Below the pieces are notes generated by a model, which had not been told where the DNA came from, made no database searches, and saw nothing but the letters and a program-made list of their open reading frames with translations. A DNA stretch of 64,000 bases from Sphaerodactylus townsendi (Eukaryota): positions 42,036,001 to 42,100,000 of the forward strand of contig NC_059428.1 in the NCBI RefSeq assembly GCF_021028975.2. Reading direction: 5' to 3'. Of this stretch, positions 46,520-63,338 are shown piece by piece; positions within the stretch are counted from its first letter, which is position 1, and each line of letters starts with the position of its first letter. Both the position numbers and the translations under genes were made by a program.

Positions 46520-57128
<10,609 letters not shown>

Positions 57129-57331
57129 GTAAGAACTGCATATCTCAACCATAGCAAATGAGTCATTCTCTAGGTACCTTTTTCAGAGAGATCAAAATAA
57201 AGCTGAAAGAGAAGCACAAATAGCTATCACTGCAGTTTTTAGTTTCATATTTATATCCATAAATAGGAGGGGGAGCTGTGTATACGCACTGGCACAAAAC
57301 AGATGCCAGCTGTAAAATTCCAAAAAGAAGA

Positions 57332-57807
57332 TGTAGTCGTGACCGCGAGGTCAGCGCAAGAATGAGACGAGACCGCTTCGAATGAGACGAGACTGGTGGA
57401 GAGTGCCAGCAGCGGGAGCGCGGGTGTCCGTGTTCCTAGCGACTCTCCCGCGTGCTGGTTCCTGGCACCTTTTATTATGATTCTAACGGGGGCGTGTAGA
57501 AGGGCGGAACGGGGGGGATTCCGGGAGAGCGGGAGAGCGGGAGACTGAGAGATCATCATGTGATGCATGATCTCATCTGGCTGCTACGTGCGGAGAGGAG
57601 CATCAGCGTCTGGGCCTAATCCTCACCTGGGGGCAAGACCATTGTCCCTTTGTCCGGGACACCCGGTGGTTGTGAGCCAGGTAGTTCATGACCTGTGACT
57701 CATCGGGGGATGAGGGGTGTAGGCGCGGTGCGACCAGAAGGCCGTAGGAGCGCCGGTGTGCCAGCGCTCTACTTACGGTGCTGCTGGGTCAGCAGTGCAT
57801 CCCTACA
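57332..57807 (-). repeat. ERV 3' LTR (476 bp)
   Basis: TGTAG...CTACA termini; preceded on the minus strand by polypurine tract AAAAAAGGAGGAGA (~57808-57821). Confidence 0.95.
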
Positions 57808-57825: not shown

Positions 57826-59357
57826 TTAGAAGGGAGGCCGAAATGCTAGGGGGCGATTTAAGGGGACGCTCGTCTCCTCCGCCGTTTGGCCAAGCTGGCC
57901 GAGCTGCTTGTGCAACATTAGAACTTGGTTGCGATGTAAGGGAAAGTCGAGGGGTTTCTTACACATGTTACAGGCAATATTAGGTATACATTGAATGAAA
58001 CAAGATCCGACGATGAGGCACACAATCAAACCAATGCAGAGCTGTACAATAACACTTAACCATCCCCCCAGTAGCCAGCTCCAAAGGGCTGACCACCAGT
58101 GGGGCAAAACGTCATACTTCAGATTAGATACAACATCTTGCAGTTCACGCACTTTCATATGAATCAAATGGGAATTATCAGAAAGATTAAAACAACACAT
58201 ATCATGTACATTCTCACAACCTTGGTGATGCAATAACAACAACTAATCAATAGCGATTATCTAAAGTCGCTTGACAAAGTTCCTGCTGCTCGGAGGCCAG
58301 AGCATCCAGAGCAATGGAGGTGGAGTTGATGGACTTCACAAGGGCACAGGCCAGCCAGCCAATGGTCTTAGCGTTGTAAGAAGCGAGTCCGGGGACTCCC
58401 ACTAGGGAAGTCGCGAGGGAGACGAACTCCGCTTCGGAGAGGGCAACCGCGTTGCTCCGGCAAGAGGGGTCGAGGGGCAGAGTGGAGCGGCGGCGACGGC
58501 GTCCGGGCTCCCAGGGTGGAGCCTGAGGCAGGACGATGGTGAGGCGGCTAAGGCAACAGAGAGTCCCGGCAGAAAGCCGAGCAGGAATGTAGTTGAAAGT
58601 TCTCTCCCCGCAAGTCCAGAACCAACCCTTGGGGAGCAAGATATTTCCATACATGGGGGGAATGTCCTCCATGCGCATGCAGTTCCAGTTGGCCGAGCCG
58701 GTGAATGGGCCCGGGTCAGTCTCTCGTCTTGCCGCGCCGGCAATGCGGGCGCAAGTATTGGACTTGTGATTGGCGACAGTCTTGGTGATGAGGGAGAGAG
58801 CGCCAGCCGGGAGGGTTTGGACTACGGGTCCCCAGTCAGCACTCATAGAGTACTTGATGGATGAAGCATTCATAAAGGGGCTTAAACCAGACTCCGCTAG
58901 GAAGTCTCCAGGGGCTTTGCAGACGGGGAGCAGGCAGGAGCTTAGCAGGCTCCCGACTCCTAGGTATTGGCCCAGGCAGAAGGACGAAACGTTGGCAGCG
59001 GCAGCAAATTGCTTCCAGATGTTGGTTTGGTCAAAGCTCGTCAGGGGGTGGCCGACTGCCACTGGCAGGAGGCAGCAGAGCAGGCAAAGGATGGTGGCCG
59101 CCGAGTTGGCAGTGATGATTGCAAAGAGGGCGGCACAGAGGTTCTCGGGCGTCTCGGGCTTGCTGGCGCAGCAGCTCTTGAGCTTGGCTGGCGGTTGCTT
59201 TGACATTCCCCCAGGTCATCCGGGTCCTTGGACCGTCTGGGCGTCGGTGGCGGCGTTCCCGTTGAGGCCGCTGGACGGGATCCTCCAGAGAGATGCGTTC
59301 CATCTCCGGGATGGGGTTGTTTTCCTCCTGGTGCCATTCCATGGGCTGGCCCGTCAT
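57826..59357 (-). pseudogene. env: ERV env, ASLV(alpha)-type SU/TM with long signal peptide; two lesions (~59160, ~58250)
   Basis: NIWKQFA...SFCL...SCLLPV, LPKGWFWTCGERTFNYIP, furin RRRRRS, internal fusion loop, LACALVKSINST, ISD remnant ATLDNR, CENVHDMCC (CX6CC), membrane span. Confidence 0.88.
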
Positions 59358-60430
59358 GGCGAGTCGGGATCTACTGGAGATCTGTAGGAAGAAGGACTGA
59401 AACACACCCCCTTCCCCAGGTTATAGGAGGGGGCCGGATCCTGCCAGGCTTGGAGAGCCGATGGCGGGAGGTCAAAATCAAGTTTTGTTGGATTTAGTGT
59501 TTGATATAAGACGACTATATACGAAGGCTTATCTTGCAGCCTGCGTAAGGGTTGCTTCTAATGCAGTCTACTGGGGGCCGCCCACTCCTCTTTCTTTAAA
59601 TTGTTTGACAGGAAGGGCAGAGGGTAGGCGATCCTGATGGAAGCTGGCTTCAGAGCGTCATCAGGGTGCGTCAAAGCGAGGGTCCGAGCCTCGAGGGAGG
59701 AGGGGGCAAGCGGACCCTGGGGGAATTGTGGGTATGCATGCTAAATTTGCAACACAAAAGAGGGCTTGGATGCGCTTTTGGGTGGTGGATGCATCCAGGA
59801 GACAAAGCAATTAGGCGATTAGGGGTGAATTTCACACACAAAAGGGGGAGGGGGTATTTCTTTGCAGGGAAAATATACTTACCGTGACCTTGGTGGTTAA
59901 CGCCGAGAGGCTGGAAATGGTGCTGAATTTGTAATCAAATTATCTTGGGGAATTGCCACCCGCCGAAACCGCTCCTTAAGGGGCGGCTTCGGCCAAGCGC
60001 CTGGCCTTGCACACTGTGTTCATACAGCCGCCAGGCGCTGGGCAACCACAACCCACACAGGTTATGTGTGAATTTGGTGCGGCAGCATCCCCTTGACTAG
60101 AGGCCTGCCCTGGCCGCCGAAACCATTCCTTAAGGGGCGGTTTCGGCTAAGCGCCCTGGCGATGGTAGCCACAAGCCAAACAGGTTTGTTAGGGGCATAG
60201 TGGCGGCAGCCTCCTTTTTAAACTGGGGCCTGTCCTGGCAGTGCTGCGGTACCAGGACGGGCCCAGATTTTAATCCAGGGAGGGCCAGTCAGCCAATTGG
60301 CCCTCCCGCTTTGCTGGTTGAAAAAATAGAGGGAAGAGAGAAGGAAAAAAAGGGGGGGAATAGTTTCCTTGCGGAAGTTCGAAAATGAGTTCAGAAGGCA
60401 CAATTAGGATCAATAATCTGTGTGATGGGT

Positions 60431-61203
60431 TTATCCATCCCAGACTAGGGTCGTTTTGACCTGGCTCATGAGATCCCTTCCCCAGAGATTGACATGGATG
60501 TCCAGAATGATGGGGCGGACTGTGAGCTGCCGCTCGAGCCCTGGGCTATGGACCGTGAGCGGGCGGATGCTCCGTCTTACGGTTTGTTTTCCCCCCACCC
60601 CCCAGATGTGCGGACAGGTCTCGGTTGGCCACTGGTCAGGCCACTCGGCTGCTCTGATGACGGTCACATCAGCACCGGTGTCCACCAGGCCCTTGAACAG
60701 ACACCCCTCCACGGTGAGCTCCAGATATGGGCGGGAGCTTCCGATGGGTGTCTCCACCGCTGCGATGGTAGTACTGGCTGCGCCCTGATGGCTGCCGGGG
60801 CTTGTGGCCTTTATTGCGTTGATGGCGGGCAGCGCATGGGGCAGGAGGATCAGCTGTGCGCAGCTGGTTCCGCTGGGCAACTCCTGCGGGATGTTCGTCC
60901 AGACTTGGAGATGGATGGGTCCCTGGTGCGTGGAGTCGATTACTCCGGGGACGATGAACAATTCCTGTTCAGCGGCGGAGGCCTTTGGCAGCACCAGCCC
61001 AATGGTCCCGGTAGGGATGGGGTCGCCATACTGGGTTGGGGCGACGAGGACCTCGTGGGGGAACTTGAAGGAGATGGGCTGGGTGCACGTGAGCGAGATG
61101 CCACGAGAGGGGGTGGTTTGGGTGTGGGTCTTGGTGTTTGGGCCTGTTCTAGTACTCTCCTCCTTGGTCCTGGGCTGGGGAGATGCCCGGGCGCAAGTTT
61201 CCC
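60431..61203 (-). pseudogene. pro: ERV pro: degenerate dUTPase-like domain plus aspartic protease
   Basis: PGVIDSTHQG and CAQLIL (dUTPase motifs 3/4), LVDTGADVTVI and LWGRDLM (protease); slippery GGGAAAC at 61197-61203. Confidence 0.88.
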
Positions 61204-62676
61204 GATGGGCAGTCGCTTCTCCAGTGGAAGCCTCTCTGGCACCGGGGGCATCGGGTTTTTGGCAGCCTCGGGGGCCTTCGTCTCTTGGGGGAAGACCCTC
61301 CTCCATCGGGATTGTAGGCCCCCCCGCCGGGCTGCCTACACTCCCTCCGGAAGTGTCCTGACCTGCCGCAATTAAAGCAATCATCCTGGGGCTGTCCCCT
61401 GGCGGTGGAGAGTGCTGCGGCGAGAAGGCTAGCTTGGTGGGCGGAGGATCCGATGTCCTGGCAAGCCTTAAGCATGTCGGTCAGTTCAGGATCTTTGCCT
61501 AGGCCCGTCATTGCTCTGCGGCACTCAGTGGAGGCGTTCTCCTTGGCGAGGCGCATGAGGAGCTCGTTTTGGGCCTCCTCGCTATCTACCTGCCTCTTGA
61601 GAGCCTCCTGGAGCCTGTTCACAAATTCAGCGTAGGGCTCTTGGGGTTTTTGCCGGATGGCGGAGAAACTTTGGGTTGGCTGGCCGGCATTGGGAACCTT
61701 GATAAACGCCTTGTAGGCGCATTCAGAGGCGACCGTAAGGGTGGCCTCTGGCAGAACAATCTGATCGTTGGGGTTGGCGAAGGCATCAAAGCCGTAAAGT
61801 TGCGCGGCGGTGTAGGCGCCGCCCGATGGCGGCTCCCCTAGAGACATTGCTGGCGGAACTCGCTTTCCTAGATCACATATTGTGCAGGGCTCAAAAGCAT
61901 GCGAAGGTGGTCTTCCAGTCATCCGGAACCATTAGGTGATTCCTTGCGACTGCCTCTAGCATGCCTCTCACATAGGGCTGGTGACTCCTACGTCTCGCAT
62001 CGCTTTGCGGAGCTCGGTGAGGATGTTATAGCCTAAAGGGCGGTACTCGACAACCTGCCGAATAACGCCATCCTCCCCTCGGTATCCGTGAAGTGAACGG
62101 GGCATAGAGCGAGGATATCGGCATCGTCTTCCGTCAGGGTTTCCTTTTTTCGCAGGTCGTGGCTAATACGTTCTGCGAGGGTTTTGAAACCCGCGCCATT
62201 ACGTGGCGCTGACGGAGGTGCTATGGCTTCAGAAAATGAAGGCGGAGCAAGGGGAGGCGGCCGAGCCGCGGGAGAATTTGAGGGAGGCAGGGGAGCAAGG
62301 GGGGCAGAAGGAGGACAGGCGTCCAATTTAGAGGATAGAGAAAATTCCAGGGGTGAAACTGAAGTTGAAAGATCGAAAGGAGGGCGGCCTACAGCAAGGG
62401 AGCCATAGGTCTGCAGGCTGATGGCGACATAGCATTGTCTCCACGTCAGTAGCAGTGACACCGGCGCGCGAGGCTCTGTGTGAAGAGTGCGCCCGATGTT
62501 TTCCCAATCCTTAAGATTCAATGTCCCCCCCCCTCCGGGTACCATGGACATTGAGCTTCAATCTCCTCAACCAATTTGCGCAGCTCCCCTCTCTTTACGG
62601 GCACCCTGCCGCGTTTCGCTAACGCTTTTAGTTCGTTAACGTGCTTGTCATAACCCCTGCTTTTGCAAGCTCCCAT
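61149..62676 (-). pseudogene. gag: ERV gag (several 1-nt frameshifts)
   Basis: MGACKS myristoylation start, CPWYPEGGTLNLKDWENIG matrix, two PSAP late motifs, MHR IRQKPQEPYAEFVNRL, two CCHC knuckles CFNCGRSGHFRREC and CPRCQRGFHWRSDC. Confidence 0.9.
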
Positions 62677-62847
62677 ACTTACCGGTGTTCCGTCGGACGA
62701 GAGAGTGTCCTAGGACTCGGGTCCCTGGATGTGCTGATCCAGCGGACGGGCGATACCAAAGGTAAGTCCCTGGATGCGACGATCCAGCGGACGTCGGTAC
62801 CGCGGCCCTTTCCCAGGCGACGGTAAGCAGGGTGGAGGTTCGAGGAT

Positions 62848-62865
62848 TCCCGGGTTTCGGCACCA
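62848..62865 (-). promoter_or_regulatory. Primer-binding site complementary to tRNA-Phe(GAA)
   Basis: Minus strand TGGTGCCGAAACCCGGGA, the complement of the vertebrate tRNA-Phe 3' 18 nt, 3 nt inside the 5' LTR. Confidence 0.92.
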
Positions 62866-62868
62866 GCT

Positions 62869-63338
62869 TGTAGTCGTGACCGCGAGGTCAGCGCAAGAAC
62901 GAGACGAGACGCGGTGATAACATCTGGTGGAGAGTGCCAGCAGCGGGAGCGCGAGTGTCCGTGTTCCTAGCGACTCTCCCGCGTGCTGGTTTCTGGCACC
63001 TTTTATTATGATTCTAACGGGGGCGTGTAGAAGGGCGGAACGGGGGGAATTCCGGGAGAGGGGGAGAGCGGGAGACTGAGAGATCATCATGTGATGCATG
63101 ATCTCATCTGGCTGCTACGTGCGGAGAGGAGCATCAGCGTCTGGGCCTAATCCTCACCTGGGGGCAAGACCATTGTCCCTTTGTCCGGGACACCCGGTGG
63201 TTGTGAGCCAGGTAGTTCATGACCTGTGACTCATCGGGGGATGAGGGGTGGGGGCGTGGTGCGACCAGAAGGCCGTAGGAGCGCCGGTGTGCCAGCGCTC
63301 TACTTACGGTGCTGCTGGGTCAGCAGTGCATCCCTACA
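62869..63338 (-). repeat. ERV 5' LTR (470 bp)
   Basis: TGTAG...CTACA termini; direct repeat of 57332-57807. Confidence 0.95.

Follow-up and report, generated by a model that had tools for sequence, protein, structure and literature searches.

A conserved stem-loop in a splice-motif-bounded cassette that stands in place of most of pol in an amplified, putatively class II endogenous retrovirus of Sphaerodactylus townsendi

The 64,000-nt stretch of Sphaerodactylus townsendi DNA analysed here (the window) contains a pair of hairpins that arose by recent duplication of a single conserved stem-loop, and the comparisons presented below support the view that this stem-loop is a selected RNA hairpin, conserved above all at its palindromic apex. 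Being duplicated is not what defines it: the majority of copies are single-unit, and the pair marks a minor lineage. The hairpin belongs to a structured, non-coding cassette of about 300 nt, bounded by splice acceptor and donor motifs whose use is predicted, and the cassette occupies the place of most of the pol gene in a retroviral lineage that has been strongly amplified. Our tentative reading, to which we would give a little under an even chance, is that the hairpin is a conserved arm of a multi-hairpin RNA domain, probably an export or splice-balancing signal, and that the 5' block of the cassette probably acts at the DNA level.

The provirus spans 63338-57332 on the minus strand (Table 1) and is bordered by a 6-bp target duplication (TCTTCT). 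Gag, dUTPase-protease and env are present and pol is absent; between the protease stop (60431) and env lies approximately 1 kb of non-coding sequence with an integrase remnant at its end. Judged from its sequence, the element is probably a pol-less beta-like (class II) endogenous retrovirus: it has TG...CA LTRs, a PBS and the target duplication, Gag contains two zinc knuckles, the dUTPase is fused before the protease, and the pol of its relatives contains RVT_thumb. The best PDB matches for its proteins are, we presume, betaretroviral. The earlier note had likewise taken the element for a defective genome with a tRNA-Phe PBS, and this description stands. The putative env was assigned by homology to the env region of relatives, and a Pfam scan of the window's env gave no match. 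An Arg-rich stretch is present in the signal-peptide region of env (59031-59420, minus strand); it presumably resembles the Rec/Rem export proteins and could be a partner of the cassette.

Table 1. Parts of the provirus, in window coordinates
Feature	Position	Strand	Remark
5' LTR (TG...CA)	62869..63338	-	453 matches and 14 mismatches to the 3' LTR
PBS for tRNA-Phe	62848..62865	-	contains GCCGAAACC
Leader, two repeated hairpins	62677..62847	-	ends in major splice-donor motif just before gag start
gag	61149..62676	-	several frames here; Gag_p24, Gag_p24_C, zf-CCHC
dUTPase-protease frame, beta-like layout	60431..61480	-	
Polypyrimidine tract and CAG splice-acceptor motif of cassette	60314..60360	-	
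Cassette 5' block, most constant part	60222..60313	-	three predicted hairpins
Variable arms of unit 1	60148..60221	-	13 clusters among 40 copies
Hairpin copy 1	60116..60147	-	32-mer
Duplication joint and variable arms of unit 2	59994..60115	-	joint repeats 5' block end
Hairpin copy 2	59962..59993	-	32-mer
Splice-donor motif CACG/GTAAGT ending cassette	59877..59889	-	in 38/40 copies
Pyrimidine-rich non-coding stretch	59640..59876	-	unmatched in pol-bearing relatives
Decayed integrase C-terminal remnant with env splice-acceptor motif	59382..59639	-	
env (putative)	57826..59360	-	several frames here; Arg-rich signal-peptide region
3' LTR	57332..57804	-	matches 5' LTR

To sample the lineage, 40 of 150 listed protease matches, spread down the ranking, were picked regardless of the hairpin, and 20 of 83 RT-thumb matches served as the pol-bearing sample. 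All 40 protease-selected copies are without pol motifs and carry the same cassette 5' block, i.e., the element is non-autonomous in that it has multiplied without pol, with the same replacement in every copy. The pol-bearing relatives share the LTR and the leader with it, and a Phe-type PBS was found by pattern in 18 of the 20; neither the cassette nor the hairpin was found in any of the 20 examined. Because older pol-less lineages retain a decayed RT start, pol appears to have been swapped in its middle for approximately 650 nt that are unmatched in the relatives. A 26-mer from the cassette has 500 exact genome matches, copies within a transposon (see below) included, and its control has 0. 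The pol-less genomes would borrow Pol from their pol-bearing relatives. Several copies are noisy with indels, possibly through assembly error. A sub-lineage (L101, L106, L118, L204 and L229) has a different sequence of approximately 1.1 kb, common to its members, in the place of the protease region, directly upstream of the cassette; one pol-bearing copy (L075) has an inverted internal segment; and small contigs such as C662, C570, C1504 and C486 hold two protease or RT matches 5.1-6.6 kb apart, perhaps collapsed or tandem copies.

The acceptor ACCAG of the cassette is in place in 37 of the 40 copies, and the tract preceding it is 88-97% pyrimidine despite its varying sequence; the closing donor GTAAGT is kept in all copies except one in which it is deleted and one that is truncated. 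The exon so predicted measures 431 nt in the window copy (60313-59883), 266-329 nt in 34 one-unit copies and 481 nt in one two-unit copy, and is unmeasurable in five. The 5' block (91-92 nt) varies least within the aligned interior, with a diversity of 0.049 vs 0.10-0.16 in the coding regions, and shows one two-sided change (5/41). It contains motifs that we label GC-box-like, CCAATTGG (CCAAT) and GGATTA, as well as an 11-mer that we take to be A-box-like. The variable arms lie between fixed anchors, and neighbouring arms have been exchanged between lineages. A closing stem is predicted to join the flanking strands, with -11 to -30 kcal/mol for the majority of lineages and weak pairing in one. 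Folding of the cassette from 14 copies gave z values between -2.0 and -8.9, and the antisense strand often folds equally well or better; the strand assignment is therefore based on the splice motifs and a single edited copy, described below. A search of the cassette against Rfam, which may not include RNA transport element models, found no match, and searches of viral and metagenome contigs returned nothing. The leader-to-cassette and cassette-to-env joints of spliced genomic copies gave 0 matches, and there was no retroviral joint among the 15 listed of 73 splice joints in contigs.

Several other identities of the cassette were considered and rejected. Its likeness to a second copy of the viral leader has a local score of 33, which was reached by 132 of 1000 shuffles. 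It is not decayed pol, given that only its two ends match pol and its middle is unmatched in 20 pol-bearing loci in profile and protein searches. A Trp-rich frame in the 5' block, taken as a candidate RT start, failed to align; the genuine RT remnant is located upstream in older lineages. The ends of the 5' block may resemble a leucine tRNA, and the two-sided change favours another pairing. An anti-methylation role was also set aside, since CpG sites have decayed no less within the cassette or around it than elsewhere: the ratios of CpG to other changes are 2.1-4.0 across the pol-less element, 1.0-3.0 in the pol-bearing elements and 2.0-3.4 in the transposon outside the block.

Both 32-nt hairpins of the earlier note are confirmed on the minus strand, 154 nt apart, as is the longer diverged direct repeat that contains them, whose units start at about 60239 and 60114. 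Each hairpin folds at z about -3.1, with 0 of 200 shuffles equally stable, and the 301-nt region around them folds at z -5.3. The two-unit form was found in one of the 40 protease-picked copies (another has unit 2 truncated) and in 5 of 70 position-picked loci, and the duplication joint has 34 exact genome matches. Given that the joint is a second copy of the 5' block's end and that the window's two units resemble different one-unit lineages, the duplication likely originated in a template switch; such a switch would have joined two cassette variants, in an arrangement that is tolerated rather than needed. In two-unit copies, the two hairpins are predicted to be able to pair with each other inside one molecule. 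A two-unit module corresponding to window 60272-59942 stands alone within non-retroviral DNA at L023:1489-1807.

A search pattern recovered 38 hairpins from 37 of the 40 protease-selected copies, and three copies gave none. The apex CCTTAAGG is intact in 35 of the 38, which bears out the 8-nt palindrome that had been proposed, but the predicted loop is UUAA alone, with the CC/GG bases paired; the provirus contains 18 palindromes of 8 nt. The 5' 9-mer is kept in 21 and the 3' 9-mer in 13 of the 38 hairpins. In 34 distinct rows, 91.6% of the cells of the stem pair, vs 30-44% in slid controls. Two-sided changes occur at 2 of 13 stem pairs, the covariation score of 0.119 is within the shuffle range (123 of 500 shuffles as high), one stem pair is mismatched in 11 of the 34 rows, and wherever the stem commonly deviates from perfect pairing, the change is a transition. 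Sites with shared variants number 2/19 in the apex and 9/32 in the hairpin, vs 37/52 just downstream and 133/231 past the donor, and the apex persists even where both arms and every neighbouring arm have been replaced. Diversity is 0.113 in the hairpin, 0.087 in the donor and 0.049 in the 5' block, vs 0.23-0.33 in the adjacent non-coding parts; an early dip in conservation was disregarded as biased by the query. One copy (L047) is without the hairpin, and DNA contigs show copies missing 59948-60277.

The hairpin arms had been proposed to match the acceptor stem of tRNA-Phe and thereby to act as a tRNA mimic or a PBS-pairing element. The match is partly correct: the genome's tRNA-Phe genes carry GCCGAAA/TTTCGGC (three of eight pattern matches are tRNA-Phe by sequence), but the exact 5' arm is present in copy 1 only, and that of copy 2 reads GCCGAAG. 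The recurrence of the arm sequence in the PBS was also correctly seen (as GCCGAAACC, at 62865-62848). Since neither the two arms within a hairpin nor the two copies are independent of each other, the tRNA and PBS matches count as one 9-mer; judged from 300 shuffles each, the chance of such a 9-mer is approximately 0.35 anywhere in the 5-kb interior and approximately 0.01 in a single 320-nt cassette. The latter value speaks for a tRNA-Phe mimic or a PBS-pairing switch that recruits helper reverse transcriptase, as do exact arms that are common in the older lineages keeping an RT remnant and in the captured copy of the transposon. As a current function, however, this explanation is largely refuted, and we consider it very improbable. 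Both 7-nt arms are exact in only 10 of the 38 hairpins with the PBS type unchanged (Phe-type in 32 of the 40 pol-less copies, no other type seen), and four copies carry GAGAYC/GTCTC arms, altered on both sides; what has been kept is therefore the apex sequence and a stem, and not the tRNA identity. Pairing between the 3' arm and the PBS is predicted at about -17 kcal/mol, which is no better than the hairpins themselves (-16.8 and -23.0), and the full 18-nt primer duplex, at -39.9 kcal/mol, is far stronger. In addition, ARAGORN reported 0 tRNA genes, no Rfam tRNA match was obtained at E<=5, and the hairpin has neither a cloverleaf nor a CCA end. Co-packaging with a helper RNA through the palindrome, also suggested in the earlier note, fails because none of the 20 pol-bearing relatives carries the hairpin. 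A fragment of a PBS or primer may have been the source of the arm.

An indication of an RNA fold comes from one copy, L065, in which A>G changes are present at 16 of 72 A sites in the cassette vs 4 of 625 elsewhere (p 1e-13), with a U or A as the 5' neighbour at 12 of the 16. Such a clear cluster was found in 1 of 121 cassettes screened, and weaker ones in L013 and L017. In the predicted fold of L065, the edited A's are not paired more often than the unedited ones (0.40 vs 0.37), and A's of the apex have turned to G in L065, L003, L015 and L017. In bovine leukaemia virus (BLV) proviruses, A>G clusters are ascribed to ADAR1 in the accessible text of PMC8025556. By analogy, the L065 cluster points to an ADAR-like footprint on a folded sense-strand RNA that would later have been reverse-transcribed.

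Another finding is that a multi-copy Harbinger DNA transposon carries the cassette, antisense, within the intron of its transposase, in approximately 750 nt of retroviral sequence that includes an integrase-derived tail. Among 70 loci from the first 100 listed matches of the cassette 26-mer, 68 have retroviral and 2 have Harbinger flanks; the best 20 of 40 matches to the Harbinger cassette variant all share the transposon body, and seven lower matches comprise four Harbinger and three retroviral loci. A Harbinger-specific 22-mer has 29 exact matches. The transposase (DDE_Tnp_4) has two exons, with 436 aa open after splicing in L125; TIRs and 3-bp target duplications are present in 3/3 copies checked, and a second frame shows a Myb-like spacing, recognised by eye. 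The family (L125, from 243 onward, and L125-L144, L158, L160-L162 and L230) is approximately 9.2 kb long, with the TIR GGGCGTTTTCGC, and has a third frame on the opposite strand. Among the best 30 transposase matches, 11 are with and 19 without the cassette, the latter including four relatives at 93-96% amino-acid identity. In a midpoint-rooted cassette tree of 20 retroviral and six Harbinger rows, the six Harbinger cassettes form one clade (100/100) beside older retroviral variants. Because this clade lies inside the retroviral variants, we infer one capture from the retrovirus by the transposon, followed by spread.

The captured cassette allows conservation to be compared in the second carrier. 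In 18 Harbinger copies (L140 and L144 being excluded as interrupted or partial), variants shared by at least three copies occur at 0 of 91 sites of the block vs 84 of 802 elsewhere in the intron (p 1.7e-4), and at 60 of 1307 exon sites. The hairpin has 3 of 32 such sites, and copies with stem-breaking changes have spread. The AG and GT of the splice motifs survive in Harbinger lineages with altered neighbouring bases. Private mutation rates are also lower in the block, about half in Harbinger, and low mutability therefore explains part of its conservation; since these rates are halved and the lineages are few, the conservation of the Harbinger block is good but not final evidence. In run X4, whose kind is not on record, a contig skips the 935-nt Harbinger intron at GT..AG; this spliced contig, which is absent from X1-X3, carries four exon-2 variants of the cassette-bearing lineage, a hint that the cassette-bearing Harbinger is transcribed.

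Based on the results presented above, the two parts of the cassette may be assigned to different levels. A post-transcriptional RNA element is the most likely assignment for the hairpin, because it is conserved only where an RNA stage exists, and the 5' block fits a DNA-level enhancer or promoter, because its conservation holds in both orientations and extends to an element without an RNA stage. In the mechanism that we propose, the hairpin would act on the viral RNA to keep splicing and export in balance in a genome that no longer has pol; the fixed apex would be read by a host or viral protein, the splice motifs of the cassette would be used, and the 5' block would be an orientation-independent enhancer or promoter. 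It is somewhat unlikely, but conceivable, that the cassette as a whole is a portable booster, for which pol was traded against copy number, with a 91-nt core that an active DNA transposon then took up and maintained under selection in the opposite orientation. The main rival for the hairpin is a role in self-dimerization, an unlikely one in our judgement: two pol-less genomes would make a kissing contact through UUAA, extend it into a longer duplex and so promote their own packaging. The intact apex palindrome, the A>G changes in the apex (as if it had been paired) and the lack of hairpin conservation in the DNA transposon are all in keeping with such a contact, and the homoduplexes are predicted at -46.0 and -58.4, vs -33.6 and -46.0 for two separate hairpins; a favourable homoduplex is, however, expected of any near-perfect hairpin. 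Moreover, the hairpin lies 2.7 kb downstream of the usual site, the leader has conserved hairpins of its own, and the two-unit lineage has spread, as its 34 exact joint matches show, although its hairpins can pair intramolecularly.

Two further explanations concern the cassette as a unit and the origin of its hairpins. Quite unlikely is a small non-coding RNA unit, either a spliced or circularised exon or a separate transcript, acting on host silencing or RNA metabolism. The exon-like size, the strong bounding splice motifs, the AG and GT retained in Harbinger lineages, the presumed A-box and the fixed anchors with swappable arms would suit it; on the other hand, no conserved B-box or T-run was seen in the cassette, and its stems, at 10-20 bp, are short for microRNA precursors. 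The CpG decay described above also argues against it, and a trans-acting product would give a Harbinger copy little private gain among hundreds of retroviral copies. Alternatively, the hairpins could be neutral inverted-repeat by-products of error-prone reverse transcription, with only the env splice acceptor, and perhaps the 5' block, of importance. The transitions in the stem, the covariation within the shuffle range and the copies without the hairpin are consistent with this, but the scarcity of shared variants in the apex and hairpin relative to the sequence downstream, together with the survival of the apex when both of its arms and all neighbouring arms are replaced, makes it improbable.

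There is precedent for a non-autonomous class II element being more numerous than its helper: according to the accessible part of PMC6466679, mouse ETn exceeds its pol-bearing relative MusD in number and shares its LTR family. The pol-less lineage described here is similarly more numerous, shares the LTR family and has internal sequence that is not recognisably retroviral; unlike ETn, described there as having no coding capacity, it retains frames for gag, dUTPase-pro and env, pol being its only loss. ETn is demonstrated in the same source to be mobilised in trans, whereas this is presumed for the present lineage. Structured export elements are used by known class II elements, and the RNA transport elements given in the accessible text of PMC5767303 are the musD MTE, the IAP RTE and the MLV PTE. 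The cassette is comparable to these in being a predicted multi-stem stretch of some hundred nt within a retroelement genome, a likeness of layout and of predicted export role only and not of compared sequence; as far as that text describes them, it differs in being splice-bounded, with modular arms, absent from pol-bearing relatives and partly conserved in a DNA transposon. Retroviral dimer sites are mostly found in the 5' UTR; in MMTV and MPMV they are close to the PBS and the start of gag (PMC5874298, in part). The hairpin resembles MMTV Pal II, MPMV Pal SL, MuLV SL-A/SL-B and HIV-1 SL1 in its conserved apex palindrome and predicted extended duplex, but, compared with the sites in the accessible part of that paper, it lies outside the 5' leader, is not in autonomous relatives and has an AU-only 4-nt loop. 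PIF/Harbinger transposons have a DDE transposase, a Myb-like protein, TIRs and 3-bp target duplications (PMC9179366, accessible text), and the second carrier shares the transposase, TIRs and duplications and has, by eye, a candidate Myb-like frame; unlike the PIF/Harbinger elements in the literature searched, it holds the retroviral DNA with the conserved core in its transposase intron. Neither the cassette nor its capture by Harbinger is described in the literature searched, and subscription journals, supplements, Repbase and Dfam may list the families. What appears new within that literature is a lineage that swapped only pol for a splice-bounded modular cassette, together with the capture and partial conservation of the latter in a DNA transposon.

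Non-autonomous retroelements often outnumber their helpers, for reasons that are mostly unknown, and the present lineage offers a short sequence with defined limits as the candidate cause. The two carriers also constitute a natural experiment, in which the same DNA is placed in a retrovirus with an RNA stage and, on the opposite strand, in a cut-and-paste transposon with none; the comparison separates selection at the RNA level (the hairpin) from selection regardless of stage (the 5' block), and both parts are testable in small non-viral reporters. If the portable-booster reading were true, one cis element would serve both class I and class II elements. In addition, hundreds of strong exon-like cassettes may affect the host genes whose introns hold them. 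In the window, leucine-rich-repeat exons of a host gene, which we take to be CEP97-like, lie at 49726-50025 and 56859-57161 on the plus strand, and the provirus is antisense to this gene, downstream of the second of these exons. Between the two exons, at 50230-51562, are nested inverted repeats with arms of up to 166 nt and 75-100% complementarity, resembling a foldback element.
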